Source of the DNA: an uncultured Candidatus Binatia bacterium
Lineage (GTDB): Bacteria > Desulfobacterota > Binatia > UBA9968 > CAXXLF01
Assembly (NCBI GenBank): GCA_965218425.1
Contig: OZ244621.1
Span: 640,001 to 704,000 of the forward strand
Direction: 5' to 3'
Length of the DNA stretch: 64,000 nucleotides
In this document: piece by piece, positions 21,611 to 56,652 of the stretch
Layout: the number at the start of each line of letters is the position of its first letter
Position numbering within the stretch: position 1 is the first letter of the stretch
Notes under the pieces: generated by a model
What the model was told of the DNA's origin: nothing
Databases searched by the model: none
The model's input: the letters and a program-made list of their open reading frames with translations, nothing else
Made by a program: the position numbers and the translations under genes

Positions 21611-21677
21611 CCGTTGGAAATGCCGCCCGCCGTGTTGGGGGTGGTAGAAGGGTTAGGACAAAGGGGTCAAACCTTGT

Positions 21678-21960
21678 CGGGTTGTTTCCCTAACATCGGT
21701 TAAATAGCGCAATAGATCGAACAGAATTATTATGCGCCGTGTTTGTTTCCTCAAACCGCCACGGCTTGCTGCAAGGCCATGGAACGGCGGTCGCAAAGCG
21801 AATGGCCCCGTTCGTTGCCGTAGCCATAACCGCTCTGAGTTTGGCCGTGCATGATAAATCGATGGCCCGATGTTCTGCATTGTCGCCATCAAGTAATCCT
21901 GAATCTACACCCGCCGACGACCGCCCCACCGCGCTCGTTTCAGTCCGTATCGACTCCCTG
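21678..21960 (-). pseudogene. IS1182-family remnant (3' end and degenerate terminal repeat)
   Basis: Colinear nucleotide similarity to about 55029-55300 of the intact IS1182 copy. Confidence 0.7.
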
Positions 21961-21964
21961 CATG

Positions 21965-22269
21965 CATGACGCTTTTCTGTTTCCGCGTTATGCCAAGGGC
22001 AATACAGTCTTTGGATGTGCTGGCGCAGGGTCTGTAGCGAGGCTGAGCTTGGCAGACTGCGACTTCCTGACCTCTGCCACACCACGGCTAGTCATGCGAT
22101 CATGTCGGGAGAGAACCTGACCCTGGTCGGCACGCTGCTCGGGCACCTGCGGCATCGAACCACGGCGGACTACGCGCACCTCGCCGATGGGCACCTTATC
22201 GAAGCGGCGGAGCGCATCGGCGCGATCATTACGGAAGCGATGGTGTGTGCCAACAACAACCGACTCTGA
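21965..22269 (+). pseudogene. Tyrosine recombinase/integrase C-terminal remnant
   Basis: RLRLPDLCHTTAS...VGTLLGH...TTADYAHL (degenerate HxLRH, LGH, Y motifs). Confidence 0.75.
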
Positions 22270-22290
22270 TATGTTCGGTACGTCAAATAA

Positions 22291-22878
22291 CTACCCTGGA
22301 TTTCTCGAAGTCCATATCTCGTGCACAAACTCACGAGCGCTTTTAAGATCAAGATCTGTCGAAAGTTCGCGTGTTTCGATCACCTGTTGCACCCACCCTG
22401 GTCCATGCCCACCGACGGATTTGCAGAAGCCTTCCAACTCGCCAACAGGTACGATCCAGAGGCCCTTCTTCTTGAAAAGCGCTTTTAGTTTTTGGAACTG
22501 TTGCGTGGCCTGCCCCTTGGGAATGGCGGCTTCTCCCGCTTCCTTGACAGCATCCCAAGGGGACGCCTTTCTAAATATCTTCTCAATTTCCTTCTGCGTT
22601 TCTTTTGGAAACTCACCCTTCGTCTGTATGGTTTCCAATTTCCCCAAAATCGCCTTTTTAATTTCACCCGTATTCGACCACGGTTTGTGTTCCTCGATAG
22701 ATTTACGAATAGTTCGGACAATGGGCTCTATTTTATTCCAACTTATCCCAAGAATTCCGACAATATTTTCAAGAACATCATCACTCTTCAAAATGTCTAA
22801 ATCTGATATAACGTCCACCCGCACGTCGAGTTCCGTCAACGCCCTTGCCAGCGCAGCCATTCGATGCTTACCGTGTGT
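22291..22878 (-). pseudogene. 5'-truncated OLD-family ATP-dependent nuclease (TOPRIM C-terminal part)
   Basis: HGKHRM..LARAL..LDVRVDVISDLD, WIVPVGELE; frame runs into the 50-bp repeat core at 22879. Confidence 0.6.
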
Positions 22879-23095
22879 GGGGTCAGACCTTGACATTTGA
22901 CATGATTCATCTCGCCTTCTCAAAAGTTGCGAAATGGCCCGTAAACCGCCCATGCAAAGCCCCTGAAAGGGCCGTGCAACGACCGCGCTCGATGCCGCCC
23001 ATGCCCGGGCAGCTTGCCGAGCCTTGCATCGCCGTAGACCGCCTGCGCCTCCGTAGATTGCCCTCGCCCCTGCCTTGGGCATAGCGCGGAAACAG
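22879..23095 (+). repeat. GGGGTCAG core repeat, subtype 2 (core 22879-22928)
   Basis: GGGGTCAGACCTTGACATTTGACATGATTCATCTCGCCTTCTCAAAAGTT plus about 165 bp shared with 32352-32573 (inverted). Confidence 0.9.
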
Positions 23096-23170
23096 AAATG
23101 TATTCCCGCTTCGCTCACCGGTCGATGCATCGATGTGCGCCATCCGCTGCGCCTCCCCTCACCCATGTCA

Positions 23171-23884
23171 CTATTCGCAGACCACCCCGTCGCCATCGCC
23201 GTCGCGCATGAAGGGGTAAGCCGGATGGCCGCGCCGTACCGGTGCGATGCCGTGCCGCCGCGCCTCGCGGCAGGTGATCCGTCCGTTGCGGTTGTCGTCC
23301 CAAAGACGCAGGGCGTCACCAGACCCCAGAGCCGTGGCACTATGCGAAGCGGGCGGATCGGAAGACGCTGGCGAGCCGTCGGCGCAGGCATGGACGACGA
23401 GCTCGGTCGAGGAGCAAGACGACAGCACCTGTTCCAGCGCGTCGGCCTCGCGCCGGTCGATGGTGAGACCGTACTTGCGGCGTACCTCGATGATACGGGC
23501 AGCGAACCAACACTGATTCTTATCCGACATCCATTCGGCGGCGTCCTTGGCACACTTACCGGATTTGCTGCAGCGGTTCACCTTTGGGCTCGCCAGGGTC
23601 AGGTTCAGCAGGTCGGATGCGAACCGGCGTCTCATGGAGCGATCAGCCCCACAGAGCCCGCTGTCATGGGCCTCGGACCGAGCGACGATGTGTTCAATGT
23701 CCGTCTGCCGGATGCCAGCGAAGCAACGCCCCGTGTAGGGTCCGTAAACCTTGCCGATCGCGGAGACAATCCGGGGCTCAACCGACTGCGGATAGTGGTA
23801 GTCGCGGGAGCTGTAGGGGGAGCAACGGTGCTCTGGCGCGACGACAAGACCGTTCCAGGTCTGGCCATCTTCCGCATGGACCAC
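23171..23884 (-). CDS. HNH/DUF1524-like nuclease with C-terminal Excalibur Ca-binding domain, probably exported
   Basis: DIEHIVARSEAHDSG, FASDLLNLTLA..VNR, KDAAEW; C-terminal TC.EAR...YPFMRDGDGDGVVCE; hydrophobic in-frame segment upstream lacks a start codon. Confidence 0.75.
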   Translation of the reverse strand: MVHAEDGQTWNGLVVAPEHRCSPYSSRDYHYPQSVEPRIVSAIGKVYGPYTGRCFAGIRQTDIEHIVARSEAHDSGLCGADRSMRRRFASDLLNLTLASPKVNRCSKSGKCAKDAAEWMSDKNQCWFAARIIEVRRKYGLTIDRREADALEQVLSSCSSTELVVHACADGSPASSDPPASHSATALGSGDALRLWDDNRNGRITCREARRHGIAPVRRGHPAYPFMRDGDGDGVVCE

Positions 23885-24169
23885 TCCTGCGATCAGAACC
23901 GCGAAAATAGCCGTGATGATAAGGTGGTTGAAGATCCGTCTCTGGACTTTGACGACACTTGATTCGGATTACGATAGTGACGCTGGAATTAAACCGCCAA
24001 GACCTAAAACCAGGCAATCGAGCATTGAACAATCTTGCGCTGCCAGATAGGTGTAAAAGACAGTTCTGGCCTTAAATTATTGTGCATCGCCCCAACGACG
24101 TTATTGCCGGCCATAAAGTTCTGTGCTCAACTCTTGCAGCCATCCCGCAACGAACCTGTTGTTTTAGCG

Positions 24170-25036
24170 CTATTTGTGTAACTCATATGCACGCTTCAAC
24201 AATATTCCCAGGGTTTCATGCTTTTGCGTTATGTCACTTTCGTTGAGTTTGAGTTTGTAACTACCCCGACGCTTGTTATAGTCAAGAAGATCCAGCTCCG
24301 CATTGGTTATGAGCTCTGTATTTTCTGTGGTTTCCGGAAGTCTTATTGAGATGCGAAAGGCGTTTTTCTGAGGTTGACACAATGCAAAATTACATGCGCG
24401 GCTCTCAACCAAGAAACCGATGTAGTACTTGTTATAGTTGAACTCCACAGACGGAAGAAACAATTTCGTGATGTCCAGCACTTTATCCGCGAGCGCAACA
24501 GTCTGTTTAGTGCCACGTTGTTTTTCCCAATAATTACGATCTGTTGGTTCTGACGTTTCTTCGTCTTCGTCTGGATAACCAAGCTCCACGGCAGATAGAA
24601 TTTTCGTAAACTGGAGGCCTACTCCCTCAGGGGTTTCAATCGCCGTGACTTGGATAGCAATAAGTGGAATAAACCCGTTGAATAGCCCAACTACATTGAG
24701 AAACCGGCTTGTAATGTCTTCTGCAACAATTACAGCGGTATGGTTGTATTGGGGGTATCTTTTTCTTTCTAAATCCCAATATTCAATCGTTCTGATGATG
24801 TGTGATTCATCAGTCGCGCCGAGTTGAATCTCTACTTCGTACCGCTCGGAACCGTCCACATCCTGTAGCAATAGATCTAACCGACCTGCCCTGCTATGAA
24901 TGCGTTCTTTGTCTTTGAGAATGACGTCACCAATACCCAATATTGAGGGGTCCTCGGCAACGATTTTCTGAAGCCACTTTTCGTCTAGTTGTGGGTGATC
25001 CTTAATACTCAACGTTTGCAGTTTGATGTGCTTCAT
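24170..25036 (-). CDS. PD-(D/E)xK nuclease-like protein (NucS/DUF5655-like)
   Basis: GRLDLLL, YEVEIQLGATDESHIIRTIEYWD; AT-rich. Confidence 0.7.
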   Translation of the reverse strand: MKHIKLQTLSIKDHPQLDEKWLQKIVAEDPSILGIGDVILKDKERIHSRAGRLDLLLQDVDGSERYEVEIQLGATDESHIIRTIEYWDLERKRYPQYNHTAVIVAEDITSRFLNVVGLFNGFIPLIAIQVTAIETPEGVGLQFTKILSAVELGYPDEDEETSEPTDRNYWEKQRGTKQTVALADKVLDITKLFLPSVEFNYNKYYIGFLVESRACNFALCQPQKNAFRISIRLPETTENTELITNAELDLLDYNKRRGSYKLKLNESDITQKHETLGILLKRAYELHK

Positions 25037-25109
25037 TCACCCAATATACAACACGATCGAATGTCGGCCAAGGGTCTGTATCAGGCTAGTACAGATTGCG
25101 CTTTAGGGC

Positions 25110-25352
25110 TGCAAAAGAAAGGTGAATTTGATGGTGCGCTCTACCATGGAACTTCTCGCGACAATGCCCGAGAGGATATCTTCGATGACGATCAGGCAAG
25201 CTCGGTAAGGCCGAGCGGGACAGTTTGATTGGCCGTGCGGCGCATGGTGATGGATACAGCCGGAGAGAGGTAGCCGATTATCCAGGCCTGCACTACGCTA
25301 CGGTCAGCCGGTCGGCAAAAAAGGAGTGAAATAAGATATAAGACGTGAGCCC
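25110..25352 (+). pseudogene. Internally deleted REP-associated tyrosine (Y1 HUH) transposase remnant
   Basis: N-terminal EFDGALYHGTSRDNAREDIFDDD joined to C-terminal HTH GYSRREVADYPGLHYATVSR; ends in GACGTGAGCCC. Confidence 0.7.
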
Positions 25353-25504
25353 AGTGTCGGCTATCGACAAGAGATCCTCAACGGAGGCTTACGTTGCACT
25401 GATTCGCGGCTTTTGATACCACTGATCTAAACAGACTATTCACCAACCTTCAATAGCGCGGTGCTGAAGTGAAAGTTATTATCGGTTCTTTATAGAGAAA
25501 TGCT

Positions 25505-26641
25505 GTGGCCCGTATTCCTTACATTCCGAGTAACCCATCCTGTCATCAAATAGAAGTATTGAATGCCACCCTACAGCGTATTCCAAAAGATGACCCCATC
25601 GTTCTCTCGCTTGCCCGGAAAACCGGTGCAAAATTTTTCTCTGAGAGTTCAATAGCTCAGCTAATTGCTCATCTCTCCCGGCGTTCCGGAAAGCTTGTGA
25701 TTCGTGATACACACAATAGCTGGTTGCCAGCTCATTATTATCGATTCACATCAAAAATTGATGGCGTAGCTGCCTTAGTATATTCGAACCTCATTAGCAC
25801 AGGACGCTTAGAGAACGTAAAGAAACTTGCTGCACCTGACTCACTATTTACAGCTCTGAAATCTCGTCTTTTGGTGTCTGGATGTCTTGAGGATGCAGGT
25901 CCGACTCGCACATTCACTGCAATTGATCCTGATTACCCAACACCTGCTGAACTGGGCAGGCCTCAAGTCCGTAAAAGTGATTTTCACAACATAGTGCGAA
26001 GTACGCTAAGTCAATACGAAAATCGCTTAAAAGGGAAATCCTACGAGAGGCGCCGGGCAGAAGATCGACTTATCAGCTTTGTCTATGAAACCTTCCAAAA
26101 CACGATTGAGCACGGACGCTTCACCAAAAATAATGATTTAATCGATGGCATTCGCTATTTGCGTCTGCATGTTTACGTTGATAATAGTATTTCAGATTTG
26201 TTACGTCGAGCAGTTGGGTTTCCAGAGCTTCAACAGTTCATAGAACGAACACAACGGCAACGGAGCACCGTAAGATTTGTTGAATTAGCCGTCGCTGATG
26301 CTGGGCAAGGAATTACATCTCATTACCTAAATTCGCGATCCCCAACAGCGCCGGCTCCGGATGATCGAGCACAGGTTCTTCAAGAACTGATTGATGGAAG
26401 GCTTTCAAGCAAAAGGTCGATGTCGGGTGTTGGACTGGGTTTACCCAACGCAATGTCAGCGCTCAGGGAACTCAAGGCCTTTTTTAGCCTCCGTACTGAG
26501 GAATTTTGGCTATATCGTGATTACAGTGACCAAGACAGCGCCGCGAATGTTAGGCCGCCCCTTCATCCCGTTAGTAAAATTAAATCAATAGCACCACTCG
26601 CTGGAACCCAGTTCAACGTATTGATTGATTTCCCGAGGTAA
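25505..26641 (+). CDS. Histidine-kinase-like (GHKL) ATPase domain protein
   Basis: YETFQNTIEHG, VELAVADAGQGI, GVGLGL, GTQF boxes; no sensor or membrane segments. Confidence 0.7.
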   Translation: MARIPYIPSNPSCHQIEVLNATLQRIPKDDPIVLSLARKTGAKFFSESSIAQLIAHLSRRSGKLVIRDTHNSWLPAHYYRFTSKIDGVAALVYSNLISTGRLENVKKLAAPDSLFTALKSRLLVSGCLEDAGPTRTFTAIDPDYPTPAELGRPQVRKSDFHNIVRSTLSQYENRLKGKSYERRRAEDRLISFVYETFQNTIEHGRFTKNNDLIDGIRYLRLHVYVDNSISDLLRRAVGFPELQQFIERTQRQRSTVRFVELAVADAGQGITSHYLNSRSPTAPAPDDRAQVLQELIDGRLSSKRSMSGVGLGLPNAMSALRELKAFFSLRTEEFWLYRDYSDQDSAANVRPPLHPVSKIKSIAPLAGTQFNVLIDFPR

Positions 26642-26646
26642 GGAGG

Positions 26647-28938
26647 GTGGCCGTATTGCTCCATGTCCTCCCTTTTAAATTCGTTGATGGTAACGTGGTC
26701 CGAATTGGCATTTTGCTGGATATCCCGGAAAATGTAGACCTCACCACAATTGAAACCGAGTTGCACACGCAGCATCGGCCTCATTTCCTTGCGGCAGACC
26801 TAATCCTGCTCCGCTTTCCCCCGTGGAAAATGCGGCAACCGGAGCCGCTAGCAGTCGAGAGGCAAGGTGTTTCTAGAATTGCTGATCGATTTCCCAATGC
26901 CCAGGTGCGAATTTTATCATCGCACAAATACCAACACCTGATCGGAGACAATTTATCAGCAATCTATACTGGGAAATTCGACTTTGAAAACAACAAAGGA
27001 TCGTTCTTAAATGAATTACGAGCACAAGAACTTCAATATTTAATTGAACGGTCAGACGCAATTCTTAGTGCCGATTCAAAATATACATTTCGTCTTCCAT
27101 CTGGAGTATTCTCCTCTCACTTTCTTCGAGTCGGCAACATCCAAACCAACAGTCACAATCTTGATATATTTTTTTTCTGGATGCTTCCTTATCTGGTTGA
27201 TGTTGGAGGTATTCTGGTAGATACGTGGTCGATTGGTTCGATCGCGCTAAACTGCAGTCGGCTCACCGATAGATATGACCCCAACAATAAGAGTCTCATG
27301 AGAGTCGAGATGCGGGACAGTTATTTAGACGGTAGAGCCGAAACCCGATCTGAGCTAATCGAGCTGATAAAACGAGTATCGGACGATTTCAATTCTCCAT
27401 TCCTTTCCGTATTTAGTGCTATGATGACTAGCCGTTCCTTGAAGAACTTTTGGTCGGCTCTCGATATAGAAAACTGTCCTTCCGAACTGATTCGACTTTT
27501 AGTGTTATACCGGATGGGAGATTCCGAGATCAATCTAGATGGAAAAGATGTTCCGATATTGTGTAACTTCAAAACATCGCAATCGAGCGACGTTTCCAAC
27601 GAGAACCACGCTCAGAAGGCTGTTATCGAGATTGATCGCGGTACATATTTTCCGGTATTTATTAAGGAAAAGGAAGTTCGCCTTACCACAGACATTGCTT
27701 CTAAGAATCAAGAATTTTTTAGAAACTACGGATCATCGAATGGAATACGTATTCACGCTGATAGTATGGTAGATAGACAATTTTATCGGCATCACGGAAT
27801 TTACATTGATATTCAGAAATTGCTCCGGGAGGATTGCTTTCAGAGGCGACTGCGCGCAATTCTTACGAAGTTTCATCGATCACCCAAAATGGTGATTGTA
27901 CCGCCGCATGATAGTGGTAAAGCTCTAGCGAAGGCGGTAGCAGATCATTTTCAGCAAGAGAATGGATACAGACCGCGTATCGTCATTCATCTCGATCTAG
28001 GTTTCCCTCCTGGTGATGGTGTCGAGAACCATGACCGACAGAAAATGGCGGGGATTCATAAAGAATTAAAATCTTACGCAAATGAGGACACAATAACGGT
28101 GCTTGACGACGTTCTAACAACCGGATCTCGACTATTGTCATATCAGAAACGACTCCGAGATATAGAGTACGTTGGGCAAATTCAATATCTCGTAGGCGTT
28201 CAGAGAATGCCGTCGGCGCGGGCTTGGGCCGATCTAGCTTCTACGTTGCGTCAGAATAACCTTGGTCAGAAACACACTGCCGAATTCGTAGAATCTGTCG
28301 TATTGCCGAACTGGGATCACGACAGTTGTCCCTTATGTGTAGAGGGAAGGCTTCTGAGTGAGCTCAAAAAGGATGAATCAGTGAAAGTTTCTGATTGGAG
28401 CCTCAAACGACTGCAATTGTTGCAAAGGTCGACAAATGATGGTCTAACCAAAGATGTATTTTTTCAACCCCCGAACACACCCTCACTACGACTTTCTATA
28501 AATTCTTTCTTCGGTGACGCAGATGCGCCCCAGTCAGTGGTGTTAAGCTCTGTCGCTGCTGCAATACAAGAAATGAGAGAGCACGAAGACCCAATGAAAC
28601 GATTGGAATCGCGGGGCTTTCCTGTACGGACGGTGTTTGCGTTTGAAGACATATTCAGCAGGTATACGGACGGCATTCTTCGTGCGTCTATCCTGCGCAG
28701 CTTGACCTCAGAGGAACTTCAGCCGAGTGCTCACGGAAAAAGGACCTTGCTAATCGAGCGGGCAAAGATGTTGTTTAACACAAAGGAAGAAGACGAGTGG
28801 AATATCCAACCGGAAGTAGCGTTGGCTATCGGACTAAGAAAAGTTCCTATCGAATCTGCTGATGAAGGCACCATACAACGATTCAAAGAACTCGGTCTCA
28901 ACGATTTGGTCCCGATTGTAGAAGCAGGAAAATCGTAA
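26647..28938 (+). CDS. Large phosphoribosyltransferase-domain protein (tandem PRTase folds)
   Basis: C-terminal PRPP loop VLDDVLTTGS; N-terminal FRLPSG..SSHFLRVGN and degenerate SVFSAMMTSRS loop suggest a second, inactive PRTase fold. Confidence 0.65.
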   Translation: MAVLLHVLPFKFVDGNVVRIGILLDIPENVDLTTIETELHTQHRPHFLAADLILLRFPPWKMRQPEPLAVERQGVSRIADRFPNAQVRILSSHKYQHLIGDNLSAIYTGKFDFENNKGSFLNELRAQELQYLIERSDAILSADSKYTFRLPSGVFSSHFLRVGNIQTNSHNLDIFFFWMLPYLVDVGGILVDTWSIGSIALNCSRLTDRYDPNNKSLMRVEMRDSYLDGRAETRSELIELIKRVSDDFNSPFLSVFSAMMTSRSLKNFWSALDIENCPSELIRLLVLYRMGDSEINLDGKDVPILCNFKTSQSSDVSNENHAQKAVIEIDRGTYFPVFIKEKEVRLTTDIASKNQEFFRNYGSSNGIRIHADSMVDRQFYRHHGIYIDIQKLLREDCFQRRLRAILTKFHRSPKMVIVPPHDSGKALAKAVADHFQQENGYRPRIVIHLDLGFPPGDGVENHDRQKMAGIHKELKSYANEDTITVLDDVLTTGSRLLSYQKRLRDIEYVGQIQYLVGVQRMPSARAWADLASTLRQNNLGQKHTAEFVESVVLPNWDHDSCPLCVEGRLLSELKKDESVKVSDWSLKRLQLLQRSTNDGLTKDVFFQPPNTPSLRLSINSFFGDADAPQSVVLSSVAAAIQEMREHEDPMKRLESRGFPVRTVFAFEDIFSRYTDGILRASILRSLTSEELQPSAHGKRTLLIERAKMLFNTKEEDEWNIQPEVALAIGLRKVPIESADEGTIQRFKELGLNDLVPIVEAGKS

Positions 28939-29015
28939 TATTGCTTAACCTGCTGGCAGGATCTGTTATCGCTAGACGGTGGAAATCCGCGCCCGCTTCC
29001 CGGCCGCACGTTGTG

Positions 29016-29443: not shown

Positions 29444-29663
29444 CGGTCCAATGGAGCCGTTGCTGGCAACTTCTATGGGAGTGGCCATGAAGGGGTTGCA
29501 GGCTCGCTGGAGCGCAACGACCTGACAGCAGCAGCATTTGGGGCCAGCCGATATGCAGACGATGAGCCAAGACTACCGCTTGAGAACCCACTCACTAGTA
29601 AAATAATCAATGGTATGGCTAAATTCCAAAAAGGCCAAGTGTTGGTATAGAAAAGGAGAAAGC

Positions 29664-29870: not shown

Positions 29871-29889
29871 CCAACGGGAAACTAACGCG

Positions 29890-48583: not shown

Positions 48584-48587
48584 CCCC

Positions 48588-49505
48588 ATGGGTCGCTTTA
48601 TCCTCAAGCGCGTTTCCCACGGTCTCGCCGTTCTGTGGGCGGTGGCGACCCTGACCTTCATCCTCATGCACGTCACGCCCGGCGGGCCCTTTGATCGCGA
48701 GCAACGCCTTCCGCCCCAGGTGATGGCCAATCTGCATGCCAAGTACCACCTGGACCAGCCCCTGTGGAACCAGTACCTGCTCTACTTGAAAGGGCTCATT
48801 CGAGGTGATCTGGGCCCCTCCTACAAGTACCTTCATCGAACCGTGGCAGACATCGTGAGCTCCACCCTCCCCGTCTCCGCTCTGCTGGGATTTTTGGCCC
48901 TGGTCTTCGCCATCATGGTTTCATTGCCCACCGGCCTGCTGGCGGCCTGCTACCACAACTCTTGGGCGGACCGGTGGTGTTTGTTGCTGGCGACCCTCGG
49001 CATTTCGCTACCCAACTTCATCTTAGGGGCCCTTCTCATCTGGTTTTTTTCTCTGCAAATGGGCTGGTTTCAGGCGGGGCGGTGGGGTTCAGCGGATAGT
49101 ATGGTGCTACCGACCATAACCCTTGGCGCGGCCCCCGCGGCGTATCTATCCTATCTCCTTCGTTCTACCTTGATCGAGACCCTTGGCGAGGATTTCATCC
49201 GAACCGCCCGGGCCAAGGGCCTCAAGGAGACGGTGGTCCTCTTCAAGCATGCCCTGCGCAATTCCATCAATCCCGTGCTGACTGTCATGGGTCCTCTCCT
49301 CGCGGTCCTGGTCACGGGCTCCTTTGTGGTTGAGTTCGTTTTTGCCATTCCGGGAATGGGCCGGTTTTTTATTTCCGCGGTAACTGACCGCGATTATCCC
49401 ATGATCATGGGCGTCACCCTGGTTTATAGCGCGCTTCTGGTAGGCGCTAATTTAGCCGTTGACCTGCTCTACTCGGCCACTGATCCCAGGATCAAGTACC
49501 GTTGA
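48588..49505 (+). CDS. oppB: Oligopeptide ABC transporter permease
   Basis: PGGPFD, GDLGPSY, DFIRTARAKGL, FAIPGMG. Confidence 0.9.
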   Translation: MGRFILKRVSHGLAVLWAVATLTFILMHVTPGGPFDREQRLPPQVMANLHAKYHLDQPLWNQYLLYLKGLIRGDLGPSYKYLHRTVADIVSSTLPVSALLGFLALVFAIMVSLPTGLLAACYHNSWADRWCLLLATLGISLPNFILGALLIWFFSLQMGWFQAGRWGSADSMVLPTITLGAAPAAYLSYLLRSTLIETLGEDFIRTARAKGLKETVVLFKHALRNSINPVLTVMGPLLAVLVTGSFVVEFVFAIPGMGRFFISAVTDRDYPMIMGVTLVYSALLVGANLAVDLLYSATDPRIKYR

Positions 49506-49515
49506 AGTGCCTCTT

Positions 49516-50379
49516 ATGGAATCGGCTAAAGGGTTATTGGCTATATGGAAGAGGCTCTGCCGGAATCAAACAGCCATGTGGAGCCTCGCCTTCATTGTGC
49601 TGGTGGTAATGGGGAGCTCCCTGGTTTCTCTGCTCTCTCCCTATAGTCCCGGAGGGCTGGATGAGGCCCACATTTTGGAGCGACCCAGCCTGAGCCATTG
49701 GATGGGAACAGACGGGTTGGGAAGGGACCTTTTGACCCGTATCCTGTACGGTGCGCGAGTCTCCCTCGCCGTCGGAGTGGGCACAACACTGCTGGCCCTC
49801 ATCATTGGAACGGCTTACGGCCTGGTTTCCGGCTACTCCGGGCCGCGTGTGGACAGCTTTCTCATGCGGATAGTCGATATCTTCTATAGTCTGCCCGATC
49901 TGCTGGTTTTCATTCTCTTATCGCTGGTTCTGGGGCGGAACGTCATCGGTCTCCTGGTCTCCCTGGGACTCGTGACCTGGGTGAGGTTTGCCCGAATTAC
50001 CAGGGGAGAGGTCCTACAGGTTAAGGAGTCCGTTTATGTCGAAGGGGCCAGAGCCATTGGCGCAAGCCACCCCAGAATCGTCCTGCGGCATATTCTACCC
50101 AACATCATGGGTCCCATTCTGGTGACCCTGACCTTTATGATCCCGGGGGTAATCCTCGCGGAATCCACTCTCAGCTTTATCGGTTTAGGGATTAACGACC
50201 CCTATGGGAACTGGGGAACTAGTTGGGGAACTCTGGCTCAGGACGGCTGGCGCGCCATGCGAACCTATCCTCATGTTATCTTCTTTCCGGCAATGGCAAT
50301 CTTCCTGACCATCCTGTCCTTCAACTTCCTGGGAAACACCCTCAGGGATGCCATGGACCCGAAGGATAGGATGAGGTAA
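49516..50379 (+). CDS. oppC: Oligopeptide ABC transporter permease
   Basis: HWMGTDGLGRD, GARVSL, RHILPN, LRDAMDP. Confidence 0.9.
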   Translation: MESAKGLLAIWKRLCRNQTAMWSLAFIVLVVMGSSLVSLLSPYSPGGLDEAHILERPSLSHWMGTDGLGRDLLTRILYGARVSLAVGVGTTLLALIIGTAYGLVSGYSGPRVDSFLMRIVDIFYSLPDLLVFILLSLVLGRNVIGLLVSLGLVTWVRFARITRGEVLQVKESVYVEGARAIGASHPRIVLRHILPNIMGPILVTLTFMIPGVILAESTLSFIGLGINDPYGNWGTSWGTLAQDGWRAMRTYPHVIFFPAMAIFLTILSFNFLGNTLRDAMDPKDRMR

Positions 50380-50391
50380 TGGCCCTCACTT

Positions 50392-51282
50392 TTACTTTGA
50401 GGACGATTCCCCGGTGAAAGACGGCGCCTTACCCTGGAGCAAGGCGCCCATTTCGGCAGCAGGTAGGCGCAGGCCGACATAGAAGGGGCCGAAAAGCGCG
50501 TATATGGCGCTGGCTTCGTCGAAGCGCATCTCGTAGACGATCTTCTTGAACTCCAGGGGATCATCGGCAAAGAGGTCCACGCCCCACTCCCAGTCGTCAA
50601 ATCCCATGGACCCTGAGATGATCTGGTTGATCTTGCCGGCGTATCTCCGGCCCACCATGCCATGATCGTGGAGCATCCGCTGGCGATCCTTCATGGGAAC
50701 CTGAAACCAGTTTTGGCTTTCTCCCCGCTTCCTTCCCATGGGGTAGAAACAGAGATGCCGCCGGGGTGGAATCTTTGGCCACAGCCTGGGCGCCATGGCT
50801 TTGCGCTGCACAGCTAATTCCGCCTCCACCGCCTCGGCCCACTCAGGGGAACCGGGCAGGGTCCCTTTTTCCTTGAGCTCGCGGTAAAAACGGCCGGTCA
50901 TCTGGTACAGACCCAACTCCACCACCGAGAGATACGAAGTAGTGGGTTCCAGGAACCGGGCCAGGGGGAGATTGGCCAACCGCAGCTCTGCGCCGTTCAG
51001 CTCCTCAAGGGTCCGACGGAAGTGGAAGATCATGAGATCCCCTTTGTGTCCCAACAACGAAAAGAAAGCCGATTGCCCATCCTCACCCTGTTCCATTTTT
51101 TCCAGCGCGGAGGTGGTTTCTTTGATGACACGCTCCTGGTCGTGTGAAGTGAGATCCCTCCAATCAGACCAACGGATACGAAACATCTGGTGAAGGATAC
51201 TCCATCCATCCAAGGTCAGCGGAACCCCGGGCAAACCATCGTCTTGTGATTTTACTTTTTTGTTCACTTTTTCCCTTTCCAT
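50392..51282 (-). CDS. Chlorite dismutase family heme protein (coproheme decarboxylase ChdC/HemQ-like)
   Basis: TLDGWSILH, GHKGDLM, SYLSVVEL, CFYPM.RKR, HGMVGRRY, GFDDWEWGV, YEMRFDE. Confidence 0.85.
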   Translation of the reverse strand: MEREKVNKKVKSQDDGLPGVPLTLDGWSILHQMFRIRWSDWRDLTSHDQERVIKETTSALEKMEQGEDGQSAFFSLLGHKGDLMIFHFRRTLEELNGAELRLANLPLARFLEPTTSYLSVVELGLYQMTGRFYRELKEKGTLPGSPEWAEAVEAELAVQRKAMAPRLWPKIPPRRHLCFYPMGRKRGESQNWFQVPMKDRQRMLHDHGMVGRRYAGKINQIISGSMGFDDWEWGVDLFADDPLEFKKIVYEMRFDEASAIYALFGPFYVGLRLPAAEMGALLQGKAPSFTGESSSK

Positions 51283-51353
51283 CGCCAACGCCTCATTTTA
51301 TCTTCATTCACTTGCCGGCTTCAACCCTGTTTGTTCTTGTCTCTCTTGGTAAA

Positions 51354-51740
51354 GGGGTCAAATCTTTTATTGACAAATAACATCTTCCGGATTTTCCAGC
51401 CGCCTCCGAAATCTTCTATCCACTTCATGCTTTAAGTGAATCCCATGGCACGCCCGGCCCACCGCACCGCAACTCTTCACTCCAGACTCCCTGGCTGCTT
51501 CCACCAACGTCATGTCGCTTAGCCTCTCATTAGGCACATCCCAACTTTCCTCCCCTCGTTCTCCCCTCCTCTGCGGCTCCTCACCAGATCTTCTACCCCC
51601 CATAGATCGTGTGCCTGTGAAACCGTCTTCAGAAATTCCCCATAGTCGCCCCTGCTTAGGAACACCTTTCGGCGGGCGGATCCTCGGTTCATCAAATGAT
51701 AGACCGCACCCCGATATTCAATGCGTAAGGGCCGTGACAT
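51354..51740 (-). pseudogene. Internally deleted REP-associated tyrosine (Y1 HUH) transposase remnant
   Basis: MSRPLRIEYRGAVYHLMNRG N-terminus, C-terminal HTH remnant, ending TAAAAGATTTGACCCC. Confidence 0.8.
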
Positions 51741-52050
51741 TGATAGCCTTAATTGCGGATTTGCTCCAACGTCTGAAGCCGTTCCGTCTGCAATGTCACC
51801 ATCATCCTCCCATCTTCCCTGATTTGTAGACTTCAGGCTCATCTCTCGTTGGATTCCCTACCTCCCCTCAGGCTCACTTCTCATTGGACAAGACCCCCCC
51901 TTGACTAGAACTCCGCGAGGCTCTACCATGGCTTCGCGGCGAATGGGATGCGGGAACCGGCGGAGACATAACCGCTCCGGTTCACGACTTGGGGAAGCAG
52001 GTTCAAGTCTGCCCCCGTACAAGTTTACCCTACTAGATGGGAGGTCTCGG

Positions 52051-52932: not shown

Positions 52933-53007
52933 TCATCGTCGTCCATAGACTGAGGTGGGGTCGCTGACTGCCTGGACACAATGGCGTCCTTCATTCCGCT
53001 TTCCGTT

Positions 53008-53140
53008 AAAGGGATCAAATCTTTAGTTGACAATAACATCTTCCGGATTTTCCAGCCGCCTCCGAAATCTTCTATCCGCCTCACGCTTTAAGTGAATCCC
53101 ATGGCACGCCCAGCCCACCACACCGCAACTCTTCACTCCC
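53008..53140 (-). repeat. Second copy of the Y1-transposase 3' end
   Basis: Near-identical to 51352-51483. Confidence 0.8.
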
Positions 53141-53154
53141 AATTACCTGAAATT

Positions 53155-53220
53155 GGTGTCAGGTAACATGAAAAAGGGGTCAGCTCCAGCAGGATGGCGG
53201 TTGTAGCGGCCGTCAAATTC
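53155..53220 (+). mobile_element. IS110-type left end (orphan)
   Basis: GGTGTCAGGTAACATGAAAAAGGGGTCAGCTCCAGCAGGATGG. Confidence 0.65.
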
Positions 53221-53799
53221 AACTCCGAAATGATCAAAACACGTTATCCCAAGACATGCCCCCTTCTACTCGGGATGGCGGCGTTCCAATGAGGGGGGAT
53301 TCGTGAGGCGCCGCCCGGCCCGATTCAACGGCCCTTTAAGGCCCGTTTTTCGAGCCCTGAATGCCCTTTAAAATCCAGCCGGTTTCCGGCCCGTTTCTAT
53401 CTAATTCTGCCGGAATTTCCAATTATTTCCATCCGCCCACAACGCCGCAGCCCAAGTCGCGGGGGTCATCAAAAAAGTCGTGGGATTCAAGGCCGAGCCG
53501 CTGCCGTTGCAGGCTGAGGCCGAAGCGTTCCATGGGACAGAAAGACGGGGCGGCGCCGAGGGTGAGTACGCGCGGACCGCGCCCCCAGATCCATGGGACA
53601 CTCCCCCGGATGGAGACCGAAGAAACTCCAAGCCGTCACCTGGCGATCTGCGAAAAAACAGGATGACACGCGGTACCTTCGCCCCGGACAATCTGAATCG
53701 GCGCTGATTCCCGAACCACCTTGGGCCTGCTTGGTCCGATTGCGCCGGCTGGCCCACTCGATCTCGGCCGGGGTGGGCCAAGGTATTGCGTAATGGCCG

Positions 53800-53946
53800 C
53801 CGGGGACATGATGGATGCGCGTACCGTCGCAGGCGCCAACGCCGTCATCGCCCTGCGATGTTGCAAACTCAGCGGACGCTTCGAGAACTTCCGGGAACGA
53901 CGGGCCACCGCCGGAAAACGCACGATCACAAAACTGACCTGCTCCC
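53800..53946 (+). pseudogene. ISKra4-family transposase C-terminal remnant and end
   Basis: TVAGANAVIALRCCKLSGRFENFRERR followed by TCACAAAACTGACCTGCTCCC. Confidence 0.55.
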
Positions 53947-53982
53947 GCAAGCCGGACAGAAAGGGATAAGCCGCGTATGGGT

Positions 53983-54942
53983 TTACCGCAGTACGAACTG
54001 AACCGGGACAACCAGCACAACCTGTGTCCGATCCAAGCTGTCAGGAATCCGTGGTAGCGGCTGAGCGCGTTTGATCATTGCAATGGCCGCCCGGTCCAAT
54101 AAATCATAGCCGCTGCTCCTCTTGATCCGGTAATCCCGCAAGCGCCCGTCTCGATCTATCACGAAATAGAGATAAACCGTGCCTTCTTGACGGCGAGATC
54201 GGGCTCTTCTGGGATATTCTTTGTATTTCTCCAACCATGCTTGCAGCCGCGCCATGTAATCCGCCCGTGCGCCGGCCATGCCGCCGTCGCCGATGGAGCT
54301 GGGACCGGCCCCGGCACCCGATCGGCCAAGCGCACCCGGTACCGCAACCGATTCGATTTCCACGGCAGTCGCAACGGTCTCGGCCCGCGCGGCCTCGACA
54401 AGGGTCGCGGCGGCCGGGGTCACCGCCTCCACCTCCAGGGGATCCCGTGGCGGCGCACCGGCCTCCTCAGCCAGGCGCGGCGCCAAAGTCGGCTCGGGCG
54501 ACGTCGCTTCGACCAACTCCGCAGGCGACGCCTGTTCTACCGGCTGTGACGCAACCGATCCGATCTCCACGGCAGTCCCGGCGGTCTCGGCCCGCGCGGC
54601 CTCGACCTCGGCGGGCTTCACCATCTCCGGCACGACGGGTTCTATGGCCAGTGCCGGAACCGGCGCCGGTGACATTGTGACCGTCTTTTCACTAGGTCCT
54701 TGCAGGGCGGTTTCGGTGGCGACCACCCGCTCCGCCTCAAGTATCCTCGTGATCGTTCCGGCAACGCTGCCTGGTTGAGCGACGGCAGAGCCAAGCGATA
54801 TCTCGATCCCAGCCGGTTCGGTGCTCTCGGTACTTTCGGTCCAGCGGATATTCGGCTGCCACAACAGTCCCGCCATCACGATGACATGCATCAGCACGGC
54901 CGATGAAAACGCCATCATCCAATGGTACCGGCCGATTCGCAT
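53983..54942 (-). CDS. TonB family energy transducer
   Basis: N-terminal TM with H, Pro/Glu/Ala-rich linker, YPRRARSRRQEGTV...SSGYDLLDRAA. Confidence 0.85.
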   Translation of the reverse strand: MRIGRYHWMMAFSSAVLMHVIVMAGLLWQPNIRWTESTESTEPAGIEISLGSAVAQPGSVAGTITRILEAERVVATETALQGPSEKTVTMSPAPVPALAIEPVVPEMVKPAEVEAARAETAGTAVEIGSVASQPVEQASPAELVEATSPEPTLAPRLAEEAGAPPRDPLEVEAVTPAAATLVEAARAETVATAVEIESVAVPGALGRSGAGAGPSSIGDGGMAGARADYMARLQAWLEKYKEYPRRARSRRQEGTVYLYFVIDRDGRLRDYRIKRSSGYDLLDRAAIAMIKRAQPLPRIPDSLDRTQVVLVVPVQFVLR

Positions 54943-55012
54943 CAGCGTTTTCCGGGCAAGGTGAGAAGGTGGAGTTTCTCAACTCCGGCATCGCGCAACA
55001 ACTCCATCACAA
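54942..55012 (-). pseudogene. ExbD C-terminal fragment
   Basis: VMELLRDAGVEKLHLLT; cut at a TGACCCC motif next to the IS. Confidence 0.6.
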
Positions 55013-55028
55013 AGGGGTCAAATCTTTT

Positions 55029-56652
55029 CGGTCTGTTGCCCAAACGTCGGTTCAATAGCGCAATAGATCCAATCGAGCTATAACGTGTTTGTTTGCTCAA
55101 GCTATGACGGCTTGCTGCAAGACCATTGGATGGGGGGCCGCAAAGCGAATGGCCGCCCTCGTTGCTGCAGCCAATACGGCTCTGGGTTTTGGCCGTGTAT
55201 GAACAATCATCAGCTGGATGTTGTGCACAACGGCAATCAAGTAATCCTGAATCTGAACCCGCCAACGACCACGCCACCGCGCTCGTTTCAGTCCGTATCG
55301 TTTCCCTTGAGCAAACGATCGTTCCATGAAATGCTGACGAACCTTGATATCTCTTCTTGCTGCTTGACTCCGTGCCCGGCTACGCACGCTATCCAATATC
55401 TCCTGGCGCTCATGGCGTTTGATGGTTCGCCCCGCACTTTGACAGTGAGTGCATTGGAGCCGCAAGGCACACTGCTGACACACCCCGCGGCTCGTCACGT
55501 ACTCAAACGCTTTGCGCTCCACCCAGTGCTTACGCCGCCTAAGCGGTTGCCCTGCCGGACATGTATAAGTGTCGGTTTCTGGGTCATAAACAAACATACT
55601 TTCAGGAAATATCTTGCTCCGACGCTCCTGCTTATCCTGAGTCTGTTTCAATACCGCAATGTGAGCCATTACCCCACGGTCATAGCACTCCAGAAAATTA
55701 GCTGTAGTCCCGTACTTGCTGTCGGCTACCACCACCTGGGCACTGCGTTGGGTATGGGCCTGATGATCCTTAAGGAGATCTGTCATGCGATGTGCTTCAT
55801 TCTCATCCCCAGGGCCAACCATCGTCGCGGTAATCACCCCATACGCACCGTCAATCCCTCGGTGGGTCTGATAACGCAAATTAGAGTTCCCTTTCTTTCC
55901 CTTGCGTAGCACCGAGGCATCTGGATCGGTCGCCGACACGTAGCGCTGGTTGACAACGTTTTGCCGGGCAGGGTTCTGCGGTGGATCCTCATGCTTGTCC
56001 TCTCTTGCCTGTTCCCGCTCCTCCAATCGCCCCTCCAACTCCTTGTATGCTGGCCTCAGGTAACGTTTAAGCCCCTGGGTGTCTATGATCGAGTGGCTCG
56101 ATGCATCCGCAGCAATCAAACTGGAGTCGCAAAATAGCTTACTCCCGTCTACTAACCCGCTCTCCACACACTGCCACACTACTGGTTCGAAAAAGGAGCG
56201 AAACCACTCTACCCCCCAACGCCTCCTCGCCTTGCTCAGAACGCTGTGCTCGGGTATCTCCGAATCCAACTCCAATCCCAGAAACCACAACCAGTCCAGC
56301 CGCTCCGGTAATGTCGCCATCAACTCCCGCTCGCTACCAACGTTGTACAGCACCAAAAGCATCATCAGCTTTAATATCATTGGCGGTGCAATCGATACGT
56401 TGCCGTTGTATCCATATCGATCCTTGACTTCTTGGTACACAAAATCAAAATCCACCATCCGTGCTACTTTGCGTAACACGTGGTCCGCTCGTATTCGTTT
56501 CTCCAGATTGATCCCTGTGTAGAACAGTGAAGGCTGAGGGGGGGGTTGATGACCCATCATAGCTTTGCTCCCTAAGTACCGAAATAACTGAGAGCATTAT
56601 AACCAGAGGGCTCTCTTAACGCATTAAAAATATCGATTTAGGCAACAGACCG
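55029..56652 (-). mobile_element. IS1182-family insertion sequence
   Basis: 16-bp terminal inverted repeats CGGTCTGTTGCC(C/T)AAA at 55029-55044 and 56637-56652 flanking the transposase. Confidence 0.88.
55097..56560 (-). CDS. IS1182-family DDE transposase
   Basis: DUF772-like N-terminus (PEHSVLS), DSSLI, TDPDAS, ADSKY, YTCPAGQ, ERSFA..K. Confidence 0.9.
   Translation of the reverse strand: MMGHQPPPQPSLFYTGINLEKRIRADHVLRKVARMVDFDFVYQEVKDRYGYNGNVSIAPPMILKLMMLLVLYNVGSERELMATLPERLDWLWFLGLELDSEIPEHSVLSKARRRWGVEWFRSFFEPVVWQCVESGLVDGSKLFCDSSLIAADASSHSIIDTQGLKRYLRPAYKELEGRLEEREQAREDKHEDPPQNPARQNVVNQRYVSATDPDASVLRKGKKGNSNLRYQTHRGIDGAYGVITATMVGPGDENEAHRMTDLLKDHQAHTQRSAQVVVADSKYGTTANFLECYDRGVMAHIAVLKQTQDKQERRSKIFPESMFVYDPETDTYTCPAGQPLRRRKHWVERKAFEYVTSRGVCQQCALRLQCTHCQSAGRTIKRHERQEILDSVRSRARSQAARRDIKVRQHFMERSFAQGKRYGLKRARWRGRWRVQIQDYLIAVVHNIQLMIVHTRPKPRAVLAAATRAAIRFAAPHPMVLQQAVIA

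Follow-up and report, generated by a model that had tools for sequence, protein, structure and literature searches.

TIRtrons and their TIRYT genes were described by Di Nocera, De Gregorio and Rocco (2013, PMC3733652), and TIRYTs correspond to subclass 2.1, especially 2.1.2, of the TnpA-Y1 transposases (Quentin et al. 2018, PMC6006769). In the parts of these two papers available to us, the inverted-repeat consensus is given as GGGGWSAS, or GGGG[AT][CG]A[CG], subclass 2.1 proteins contain HTH domains, and the TIR families occur singly, as dimers or clustered. Insertion sequences (ISs) of the IS1111 group home into inverted repeats, according to the available portions of PMC11187229 and PMC12288879: IS4321 and IS5075 enter Tn21-family ends, and others enter attC sites or REPs. 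A downstream non-coding region and a junction promoter are IS1111 traits in the available portion of PMC11187229.

The stretch analyzed here (the window) comprises 64,000 nt of a Candidatus Binatia bacterium (GCA_965218425.1, contig OZ244621.1, positions 640,001–704,000, forward strand), whose genome is a single contig of 4.46 Mb. The GGGGTCA/TGACCCC motifs that recur in it are, with good confidence, the outer ends of TIRtrons (TIRYT genes) and of their broken or miniature copies. Each TIRtron would consist of a TIRYT gene, encoding a RAYT-like Y1/HUH enzyme with a C-terminal DnaA-C-like HTH, between inverted repeats starting with GGGGWSAS, a consensus that fits GGGGTCAG. The initial annotation had treated the motifs as a single network; they separate into at least four kinds of repeat that share only GGGGTCA, namely alpha, gamma and beta TIRYT ends (GGGGTCAGACCTTGAC, GGGGTCAGGCTTGCCTTCTTGC and AAGGGGTCAAATCTTTT, respectively), an IS1111-type left end, and the flanks of an IS1182-like IS. 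The end census gave 21 alpha 16-mers, 38 gamma 22-mers, 26 beta 17-mers and 35 IS1111-type left ends (reversed-pattern controls 0–1).

As in the available descriptions of TIRtrons, the enzymes combine a Y1/HUH domain and class-2 Y---NP motif with a C-terminal Bac_DnaA_C-like HTH, the terminal inverted repeats start with GGGGWSAS, the 3' repeat overlaps the gene and REP hairpins are lacking; the dispersed repeats are single, paired or clustered, and intact gene copies are few. In contrast, three subtypes coexist here, with about 20–40 end copies apiece, and most of these copies are 3' stumps with one end only rather than paired repeats. One kind of stump has been joined to an IS1111-type left end to give a miniature element, and the beta end GGGGTCAA departs from the consensus at its last position. 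Gene truncations and defence-island clustering, both seen here, are not reported in the available parts of PMC3733652 or PMC6006769. The locus also resembles REP/REPIN + RAYT systems (REPtrons) in its related Y1 enzyme (closest NCBIfam REP_Tyr_transpos), in a gene present once whose flanks have many short, non-autonomous relatives, and in being a target for IS110/IS1111-type elements. Unlike those systems, the ends carry no GTAG-tagged palindrome, and the enzyme has an extra HTH domain and scores below the NCBIfam cut-off of 80 (65.6 and 72 bits for the intact alpha and gamma proteins). The features of the window are as follows.

6797–7056, plus strand: gamma-type TIRYT 3' stump (D and B modules) ending in the gamma inverted repeat, about 90 nt upstream of the first defence gene; 155 nt are 80% identical to the 3' part of intact gamma; gamma 22-mer at 7050; repeat families I1, I5, I13.
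18037–18253, plus strand: miniature chimera of an IS1111-type left end (18037–18130; ribosome site, ATG) and a gamma TIRYT 3' stump (18136–18253); offset 146 class.
21658–22085, plus strand: beta-like 17-mer (21661), then a diverged IS1182-like IS end fragment, 78% identical to IS positions 5–278; repeats D6, D12, D13, D16.
22294–22878, minus strand: OLD-family (AAA + TOPRIM) nuclease gene of which only the C-terminal third remains, the 5' part being cut off at the core; 81% identical to residues 393–586 of protein P0125 (PF20469, PF13175, PF13304).
22879–22928, minus strand: alpha core, the putative 3' end and right inverted repeat of an alpha-type TIRYT gene, with module ii next to it (22929–23089).
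25103–25352, plus strand: decayed TIRYT gene, with an N-terminal piece (..GALYHGTSRDN..) and a C-terminal HTH piece, read by eye in six frames against the intact proteins and without a Pfam match.
29016–29443, minus strand: triple composite of an IS1111-type left end (29443–29314), a gamma 3' stump (29314–29204) and an alpha' stump A ending in the core (29203–29016).
30101–30679, minus strand: gamma 3' stump (30101–30236), then a second triple composite of A (30244–30431), gamma stump (30432–30532) and IS1111-type left end with N-terminal codons (30523–30679).
32352–32573, plus strand: alpha core (32524–32573) and module ii (32352–32523), inverted relative to 22876–23089; inverted repeats I3, I4; upstream of a Y-family polymerase gene.
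36952–37295, plus strand: Lon substrate-binding-domain (Lon-N) gene, truncated after about 114 codons at the core; Pfam LON_substr_bdg positions 2–96 of 200.
37296–37483, minus strand: alpha' 3' stump A with the core at its start, 97% identical to 29016–29203.
39321–39768, minus strand: A (39321–39509) and a longer gamma 3' stump with D module (39510–39768).
39872–40028, plus strand: IS1111-type left end after GGGGTCAGG, with the first ~28 DEDD transposase codons (MLYVGIDYHKRY..), then truncated; full-length homologues have PF01548 and PF02371.
51334–51745, minus strand: beta-type TIRYT pseudogene with ~50 N-terminal codons, an internal deletion, ~50 C-terminal codons and the end AAAGATTTGACCCC; tblastn residues 1–50, E 3e-4.
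52990–53444, mixed strands: beta 3' stump (52990–53149, minus), partial IS1111-type left end (53151–53217, plus) and D-module pieces (53327–53444, plus).
54943–55028, minus strand: last ~21 codons of an exbD paralogue (54943–55008; 19 of 22 residues identical to an intact paralogue), adjoining a beta-like 17-mer (55012–55028).
55030–56651, minus strand: intact IS1182/IS5-like IS with a DDE transposase (55100–56560; Pfam DDE_Tnp_1_6, DUF772, DDE_Tnp_1) and inverted repeats CGGTCTGTTGCC.

All six previously annotated positions of the 50-bp core were recovered (22879, 29016, 30244, 32524–32573 on the minus strand, 37296 and 39321), each with 0–1 mismatch; 100 shuffles gave no match. The variant AAGGGGTCAA(A)nCTT is present at 21661, 51352, 53009 (annotated as 53008) and 55012, and the further repeats at 29436 (minus) and 39876 are GGGGTCAGG. 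TGT(G) had been said usually to precede the core, which, by eye, holds for five of the six window copies and for about 12 of 19 genomic copies. With up to 3 mismatches allowed, 17 core copies are found in this genome, three in the same-genus genome G001 and one in G002, while the remaining 120 genomes of the order have no copy (3 of 123 with matches; reversed-pattern control 0). Genome-wide, the repeats gather in islands and group into about 12–15 clusters. Only the longer repeats carry a signal; the bare 7-mer GGGGTCA is unremarkable (847 copies versus 676 expected; rank 46 of 210 among same-letter permutations). No Rfam family was found. The ends are not REP hairpins and fold no better than shuffled sequence.

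The three Y1 transposase remnants noticed earlier are present at 51354–51745 (minus), 52990–53149 (minus) and 25103–25352 (plus), and are too decayed for a Pfam match. A genome scan for an intact RAYT/Y1 gene, as had been suggested, yielded one alpha element (991 bp, 1404076–1405066) with matching inverted 16-mers at its ends, and one gamma gene (325 aa) whose 22-nt inverted repeats agree by eye at 18 of 22 positions. Both proteins match Y1_Tnp (alpha, E 1e-13; gamma, E 3e-17) and, below curated cut-offs, Bac_DnaA_C (E 4e-4 and 1e-5). The last 22 nt of the alpha element agree with the core at all but one position, and reverse-complementing its 3' end (..SNVKV-stop plus CCCC) gives the start of the core, which bears out the proposed link between these ends and Y1 (RAYT-like) genes. 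The right repeat spans the last codons and stop of the TIRYT gene, such that TGACCCC represents a TGA stop followed by CCCC. Gamma homologues (>7,800 at E≤1e-10), mostly of 325 aa, have a common tail (..RKGRxPKxxxRxA-stop); the tail is therefore native, and module B, which encodes it, is a gene 3' end. Judged from sequence, the 50-bp core is the predicted 3' end of a shortened alpha-type TIRYT gene, and modules A, B and D are predicted to be longer TIRYT 3' stumps. Module A was not detected by tblastn with the intact alpha protein; its assignment draws on the identical last 22–25 nt and on a peptide that, by eye, weakly resembles the HTH helix. TTGTG, found 5' of most cores, is missing from the intact alpha element.

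Two TTGACA hexamers lie within the core, and inward-facing cores point towards genes at genome positions 2039739/2041079 and window positions 22879/32573, as might be expected if the core were a host regulatory element, a promoter or operator containing two TTGACAT repeats, of which copies had been placed upstream of genes. Such a role is highly improbable, given that a sigma-70 scan of 28950–30750, which includes two cores, gave no promoter at a core, that non-coding stumps come after most cores, and that the core reads as a gene 3' end, stop codon included.

The 35 IS1111-type left-end remnants start directly after GGGGTCAGG or a close variant, and relatives in two other phyla likewise sit after GGGGTCAG. 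The peptide encoded by the remnants is the N-terminal part of a DEDD transposase; over 60 aa it shares 78% identity with full-length proteins that carry PF01548 and PF02371. As in the homing IS1111 elements of the available literature, in the full-length relatives the gene is followed by a long non-coding region, and a junction promoter would be formed by TTGAC (−35) near the right end and TAACAT (−10) at the left end; the insertion point is also one fixed position in the repeat of another element. In contrast to those elements, only left ends with 2 to about 60 codons remain in this genome, from which the cognate guide RNA and right end are absent, and the left end has been reused, joined to a TIRYT 3' end, in a chimeric miniature element (left end plus gamma 3' stump, ~200–280 bp, 19 copies). 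Of the 35 left ends, 19 have a gamma stump after them, and an alpha core follows 8 of 43 gamma stumps. A single IS110-family element is intact (1,804 bp, 2 copies), and its ends are unrelated. An IS1111-type, seekRNA/bridge-RNA-guided IS, now extinct, would once have inserted directly after GGGGTCAGG; its left end would have fused to a gamma stump, and the resulting miniature element would then have multiplied.

The constant insertion point, here and in the other phyla, and the homing habit of IS1111 members could also mean that an RNA-guided IS1111/IS110-type recombinase, with a guide RNA targeting GGGGTCAG, made the junctions and that the Y1 genes were only landing pads. This is unlikely, since it would account for the left-end class alone and leave unexplained both the core and the 3' stumps of the alpha, beta and gamma types, the sole intact IS110-family element has unrelated ends, and a search of this genome and 40 relatives found no intact cognate transposase. 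The IS1182-like IS is present in four full-length copies, including 55030–56651, with at least 99.8% identity, and one more with an internal deletion. The beta 17-mer also borders its ends, which may reflect target choice or an old repeat sequence.

The OLD, Lon-N and exbD genes are indeed cut at the motifs, as first noticed, with Lon-N homology to the intact 227-aa gene of G001 ending at 37290–37293, 2–3 nt before the core. The OLD remnant corresponds to residues 393–586 of AAA_15/AAA_21/OLD-TOPRIM proteins 586 aa long; nothing encoding the first 392 residues is left in the genome, and the lost part of Lon-N is likewise absent from the genome or window. Where the core sits here, G001 and contigs of three public runs have an uninterrupted Lon-N gene, the run contigs diverging from the window after 37293. 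The short-read contigs of four public runs end at or close to the repeats in every case, and no contig spans a core, as would occur if the junctions were assembly chimeras at a dispersed repeat. That origin is barely credible for a genome in one contig, whose junction sequences differ between copies and have unique flanks; additionally, the same exbD/17-mer junction recurs at genome position 2758530, and G001 and G002 carry related composites in independent assemblies. The truncations look like insertion followed by deletion, not assembly.

At the same island site, G001 holds unrelated DNA and the intact Lon-N gene. The island borders relative to G001 (6569 and 41468) are both off the motif, synteny ends at ~51307–51345, near the beta pseudogene, and only one of three breakpoints lies at a motif, so that the synteny check goes against the initial annotation. 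Nine A copies are 94% alike, the core 97%, and island DNA is 93–99% alike between genomes, so that recent exchange, rather than function, may explain the identity of the core across genera. The single empty site recovered relative to G001 (genome ~2180300–2180880) holds a composite insert of ~580 bp here. No clean filled and empty site with both ends of one element was found, and mobility and target duplication are thus only inferred.

In the initial annotation, the motif was proposed to serve a Y1 enzyme as its site for cutting and joining DNA, whereby unrelated gene blocks would be actively assembled, deleted and shuffled, as in an integron without attC sites. Consistent with this, three genes are cut exactly at ends, different sequences join next to the core at the same points (+50, +55 and +68), one breakpoint of a rearrangement relative to G001/G002 coincides exactly with a GGGGTCAGG end, the genome encodes intact alpha and gamma enzymes, and the repeats cluster in variable islands. 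As in integron cassette arrays, a short sequence recurs between unrelated gene blocks in a variable region; here, however, it is the 3' end of transposase pseudogenes, the cores share no common orientation (five plus, one minus in the window), and neither an integron integrase (IntI) nor attC-like imperfect palindromes were found. Furthermore, the partners at the common junction points are other mobile-element ends, which fits nested insertion, lost gene parts are gone rather than relocated, the island borders lie away from the motif, and no block was found twice with the motif at both borders or moving as a cassette. Active, integron-like shuffling is therefore unlikely.

In the TIRtron reading, the intact alpha and gamma enzymes, or copies lost recently, would move the stumps in trans, and insertion, adjacent deletion and recombination between dispersed repeats would have truncated OLD, Lon-N and exbD and produced the mosaic island. 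The repeats are a known kind of mobile-element debris in a variable defence island, not a new cassette-building system, and the system is already named in print as TIRtron/TIRYT, a little-studied family of single-strand-DNA transposase genes.

The 50-base core was recovered at all six sites claimed for it by the initial annotation (22879, 29016, 30244, 32524–32573 on the minus strand, 37296 and 39321) with zero or one mismatch, and gave no matches in 100 shuffles. The short variants reported at 21661, 51352, 53009 and 55012 are also present, as is GGGGTCAGG at 29436 and 39876. The core forms the head of longer repeats. The composite unit at 29016–29443 recurs, whole or in part, 82 times in the 4.46-Mb genome, where its repeats are grouped in about 12–15 clusters. 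With ≤3 mismatches allowed, the full core has 17 copies in this genome, three in a genome of the same genus (G001) and one in a genome of the same family (G002), and was not found in the remaining 120 genomes of the order searched. Since GGGGTCA on its own is not an over-represented 7-mer (847 copies versus 676 expected), the "network" of motifs rests on the long repeats rather than on the 7-mer. A genome census covered the repeat ends of three subtypes (alpha, beta and gamma) of TIRYT, a RAYT-like Y1 transposase gene flanked by inverted repeats (TIRtron), and an IS1111-type left end; reversed-pattern controls gave 0–1 hits.

Census of repeat ends in this genome
Alpha 16-mer: 21 hits
Gamma 22-mer: 38 hits
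Beta 17-mer: 26 hits
IS1111-type left end: 35 hits

Rfam gave no match in the whole window (gathering threshold) or in 28950–30750 (E≤1), and a tRNA/tmRNA search of the window found none. The idea that the core acts as a promoter has no support, as no sigma-70-like site was found at any core scanned (28950–30750).

The genome contains four Y1_Tnp genes, two of them long and intact, and the scan for an intact Y1 gene gave one of the alpha and one of the gamma subtype. The alpha protein (gene at 1404083–1405018 of the genome) has 312 residues and the C-terminus ..DLSNVKV-stop. The last 22 bases of its gene plus CCCC are the reverse complement of the core start with one mismatch, and about 50 bases ahead of the start codon there is an inverted copy, GGGGTCAGACCTTGAC; the whole element measures 991 bp, with GGGGTCAG.. 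at both ends. The gamma protein (gene at 2583265–2584241) has 325 residues and the C-terminus ..IRAGIRKGRKPRTARRHA-stop, and its gene has an inverted 22-mer upstream. The intact gamma copy carries GGGGTCCG upstream and GGTGTCAG (reverse complement) downstream, and most gamma stumps have GGGGTCAG. PF01797 (Y1_Tnp) matches alpha with an E-value of 9.6e-14 and gamma with 2.7e-17, and HFH/HVH and YIHLNP are read in the intact sequences, a Y1 HUH domain with the tyrosine in a Y---NP motif. PF08299 (Bac_DnaA_C) matches at E-values of 3.6e-4 (alpha) and 1e-5 (gamma), both below the Pfam cut-off of 31.5 bits, and is precomputed on many among the 120 homologues listed. Both proteins pair Y1_Tnp with a DnaA-C-like helix-turn-helix (HTH).

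With the intact alpha and gamma genes, the shared ends and the native tail, the modules (A–D, parts of the longer repeats) other than C are resolved as TIRYT gene ends and stumps. TGACCCC reads as the stop codon TGA followed by CCCC, and the core as the 3′ end of a shortened alpha-type gene. Read in reverse complement, module B gives the gamma C-terminal tail. This tail is native: at E≤1e-10 one query has more than 7,800 matches among database proteins, most of them 325 residues long with a ..RKGRxPKxxxRxA end. Modules B and D are gamma-type 3′ stumps. Module A (188 bases) is probably a longer alpha-type 3′ stump, on weaker evidence than for B: a tblastn search of the genome with the alpha protein did not detect it, and the sole further support beyond the identical end is a resemblance by eye of ..SFSAPSITFEK.. 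to ..YSRVSQAAKRFEEK... Two other assignments were rejected. Modules B and A had been read as the right end of an IS110-type element, but B encodes the tail of the 325-residue TIRYT family; module A as a structured RNA was unconvincing (z −1.8, with 11 of 200 shuffles folding equally well).

The segment at 6891–7045 comprises 155 bases that are 80% identical to the intact gamma gene. The remnants at 51334–51745 and 52990–53149 are of a third type, beta, in which the reading frame runs through AAAGATTTGACCCC as ..KDLTP..; beta GGGGTCAA deviates from GGGGWSAS at the last position. The Y1 copies of the window are pseudogenes that keep only an N-terminal ..YH..RG.. piece, and Pfam gave no match on two short remnants.

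TIRtrons, in the part of the account by Di Nocera et al. 2013 (PMC3733652) used here, are RAYT-like genes flanked by terminal inverted repeats instead of REP hairpins; many share GGGGWSAS, some repeats overlap the 3′ end of the gene, and families occur singly, as dimers and in clusters. In the corresponding part of Quentin et al. 2018 (PMC6006769), 20 of 26 TIRYTs fall into TnpA-Y1 subclass 2.1, which has Bac_DnaA_C/HTH extensions, lacks REP-like structures and has the repeat consensus GGGG[AT][CG]A[CG]. The elements of this genome have the same make-up, with a Y1_Tnp domain, a C-terminal HTH and GGGGWSAS-type inverted repeats around the gene, and GGGGTCAG fits the consensus given in that part. 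On neither strand is the folding of the alpha, beta or gamma ends stronger than that of shuffled sequence (z +1.1 to −0.7). In contrast to REP/RAYT systems (REPtrons), the GTAG-tagged imperfect palindrome is absent, with no GTAG in the sequences read, and the two proteins score 65.6 and 72 bits against REP_Tyr_transpos, the nearest NCBIfam model, below its cut-off of 80. They also differ from IS200/IS605, where TnpA is short (~130–150 residues) and the ends have subterminal hairpins without inverted repeats; here the proteins have 312 and 325 residues, an extra domain and inverted repeats, and transpos_IS200 scores are 15 (alpha) and 23 (gamma) bits against a cut-off of 55. One classical IS200-type gene of 130 codons lies elsewhere in the genome, at 1071999. 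The system is thus of the published TIRtron/TIRYT kind, together with nested IS debris.

Part of that debris is module C, which occurs in the window at the following sites.

Module C copies (IS1111-type left ends)
18037–18130
29314–29443
30523–30679
39872–40028
53151–53217

The reverse complement of module C shows a 5′ leader and a ribosome site ahead of an ORF that begins MLYVGIDYHKRY. A 70-residue version of this ORF elsewhere in the genome is 72–78% identical to full-length DEDD transposases with PF01548 and PF02371. The transposase is represented in this genome by N-terminal remnants only, with at most ~60 matching residues, and no full-length cognate IS1111-type element was found here or in the 40 relatives searched. 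The left end has its first ~30 bases in common with full-length relatives from other phyla, in which a long non-coding region (170–190 nt) lies downstream of the gene. These relatives have TTGAC close to the right end and, at the left end, TAACAT; across the inferred junction this gives TTGAC-N17-TAACAT (by eye), which would make a promoter upon circularisation. Both features, a downstream non-coding region and a junction promoter, characterise the IS1111 branch of the RNA-guided IS110/IS1111 family, in the part of PMC11187229 consulted. The sole intact IS110-family element of this genome, 1,804 bp with an open frame of 434 codons, is present in two copies (2784810–2786613 and 4378150–4379953, 99.3% alike); its ends are unrelated to the window remnants, and one copy adjoins a TIRYT N-terminal remnant at 2784584–2784853.

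The left ends are always preceded by GGGGTCAGG or a near variant, which corresponds to the first nine bases of the gamma repeat, and the flanks beyond it are unique at each left end. Relatives of this IS in two other phyla likewise sit after GGGGTCAG. A gamma stump follows within 330 bases of 19 of the 35 left ends, forming miniature elements (~200–280 bp) of three size classes, three of which continue into an A module; the alpha core comes next at 8 of 43 gamma stumps. The cores of G001 and G002 meet left ends or beta ends at +55 and +68; the recurrent "junction points" are thus sites of contact between two element ends. On the simplest reading, an IS1111-type IS homed into TIRYT repeats, an internal deletion then joined its left end to the gamma 3′ end, and the resulting chimera multiplied. 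Such homing would resemble the habit of IS1111 members, which enter Tn21 ends, attC sites and REPs according to the portions of PMC11187229 and PMC12288879 consulted. That an RNA-guided IS1111-type recombinase made the junctions generally is a different proposal; it accounts for the left-end class only, and the recombinase is extinct in this genome. A 20-base unit, CATCCCGCATCATCCCGGTT, is repeated in tandem about four times at 39790–39865, between a gamma/D stump and an IS1111-type left end.

A second IS, of IS1182/IS5-like type, lies at 55030–56651 and has a DDE transposase (PF13751, PF05598, PF01609) and terminal inverted repeats. Four full-length copies, including that of the window, are at least 99.8% identical, and one more has an internal deletion. 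The AAGGGGTCAA-type 17-mer (21661, 55012) lies directly outside its inverted repeat. Older end fragments usually have GGGGTCAnGTCTT-like flanks on both sides, which may reflect either target choice or old repeat sequence.

The truncation of the OLD-family nuclease, Lon-N (Lon substrate-binding domain) and exbD genes at such motifs holds for all three. The OLD remnant (22294–22878, minus strand) covers residues 393–586 of a 586-residue OLD-type nuclease, and the rest of the gene is absent from the whole genome; PADLOC, PHROGs and NCBIfam gave no match to the fragment, and a PDB sequence search gave nothing meaningful. Lon-N is intact in G001 (227 residues); homology between the two genomes stops at 37290–37293 of the window, and the core begins at 37296. 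Contigs of three public runs also diverge from the window after 37293, and one loose contig end resembles, by eye, the intact continuation of G001. Of exbD, the last ~21 codons remain, at the 17-mer, a junction also found at a second genomic locus; the remnant (23 residues) has no Pfam match. Mis-assembly at a repeat is an alternative origin of the junctions. None of the contigs of four public runs on 21600–41500 bridges a core, so these contigs do not decide whether the assembly is correct, and parts without cover are uninformative; mis-assembly is unlikely because the cores have unique flanks and similar composites occur in two other assemblies (G001 and G002).

Compared with G001, the window is syntenic at 1–6569 and 41468–51307 (80–88% identity). 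Between these blocks, 34.9 kb here stand against 25.8 kb of unrelated DNA in G001, and 6570–41467 is a variable defence island.

Genes of the defence island
DUF499, PglZ-like, DUF1156 methylase and SNF2 helicase (Hma- or DISARM-like), with an embedded PIN pair
HSP90-like ATPase with SIR2
PDC-M65A/B
HigBA

Both island borders lie off the motif, one of them adjoining an IS1182-like repeat remnant, and a third breakpoint (~51307–51345) abuts a beta end. Island segments are 93–99% identical among three genomes (loci L048, L064 and L070) versus 80–88% in the syntenic core DNA, a difference that points to island DNA having been exchanged recently; such exchange may also explain why the core is perfectly conserved across genera. 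A 3.9-kb block at 33427–37290, encoding a 443-residue protein without assigned function, ZnuA, an ABC-3 permease and Lon-N, is 90% identical to a block on contig C6 of G001, not to the syntenic site, and its genomic context differs between the two genomes. A Hypoth_Ymh (TIGR02391-like) gene (32542–33408) is in two ORFs (32542–33159 and 33190–33408), probably through a frameshift or stop. Inverted 215-bp repeats (22876–23089 and 32352–32576), composed of the alpha core and an adjoining segment, module ii, face an ORF of 295 codons without assigned function (23075–23959) and a Y-family DNA polymerase gene (30975–32222, minus strand), which lies in DNA of 71% GC. In G001, module ii is also found after a left-end fragment. 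An inversion-like difference at 1543127/1579741 of the genome was set aside, with just one breakpoint at a repeat end.

The observations of the initial annotation are real, and its link to Y1 transposase ends is correct, the core reading as the alpha 3′ end; its proposal of an integron-like shuffling system is not supported. Integrons have attC sites between cassettes in one orientation, whereas here orientations are mixed, no repeats form hairpins and the repeats are gene stumps. No IntI integrase was found (best match to TIGR02249 93 bits against a cut-off of 265, none in the window), missing gene parts are lost and not relocated, and no block was observed twice between motifs.

HUH Y1 enzymes of the IS200/IS605 and RAYT kinds cut and rejoin single-stranded DNA via a 5′-phosphotyrosine link. 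TIRYT enzymes may recognise their own repeats, perhaps with binding of the HTH to duplex DNA, and may act in trans to mobilise stumps. Most cores are adjoined by TTGT(G), a bias that could be either a target preference or part of the alpha′ repeat. To judge from the break in Lon-N, GTG at least would be part of the inserted DNA. Deletions adjoining insertions, and recombination between repeats of 200–430 bases, could have produced the truncations and the mosaic. Mobility itself is inferred, since the empty-site search for miniature elements at three flanked loci against G001 and G002 gave no clean filled/empty pair: two of the loci had no conserved flanks, and the third has an empty site but a composite insert. 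This insert of ~580 bp (~2180300–2180880, locus L062), missing from contig C2 of G001 at ~234400, carries an alpha core and a ~250-bp repeat that is present more than 40 times in G001 and has an end similar to the IS1182-like inverted repeat. At 2039739–2041079 of this genome, two inward-facing 25-base alpha ends surround 1.34 kb with small ORFs without assigned function, which could be a paired-end, gene-carrying derivative.

A further possibility, which we regard as rather improbable, is that TIRYTs are one-ended: the 3′ repeat with ~50 nt would suffice in cis, and the Y1-HTH enzyme would cut and join by a TTGT-like target, leaving 3′-anchored stumps and adjacent deletions, while the ends would serve as homing sites for RNA-guided IS1111 elements. 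If so, TIRYTs would genuinely drive gene loss and the exchange of blocks in defence islands, and IS1111 homing into their ends would amount to three-layer parasitism.

TIRYTs are a very large family (>7,800 homologues of one query), and a literature search yielded no biochemical study of one. This genome offers material for biochemistry: intact genes of the alpha and gamma subtypes with defined repeats, dozens of stumps, and a Lon-N gene broken at a point located to the nucleotide, of which the sister genome has an intact copy. On the simplest reading, it also shows an RNA-guided IS1111-type element that selected TIRYT ends to land in. Annotators who recognise the stumps can account for several truncated defence and housekeeping genes and avoid mistaking the repeats for a new recombination system. 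The value of the locus is that of a well-documented natural case for the large TIRYT family.
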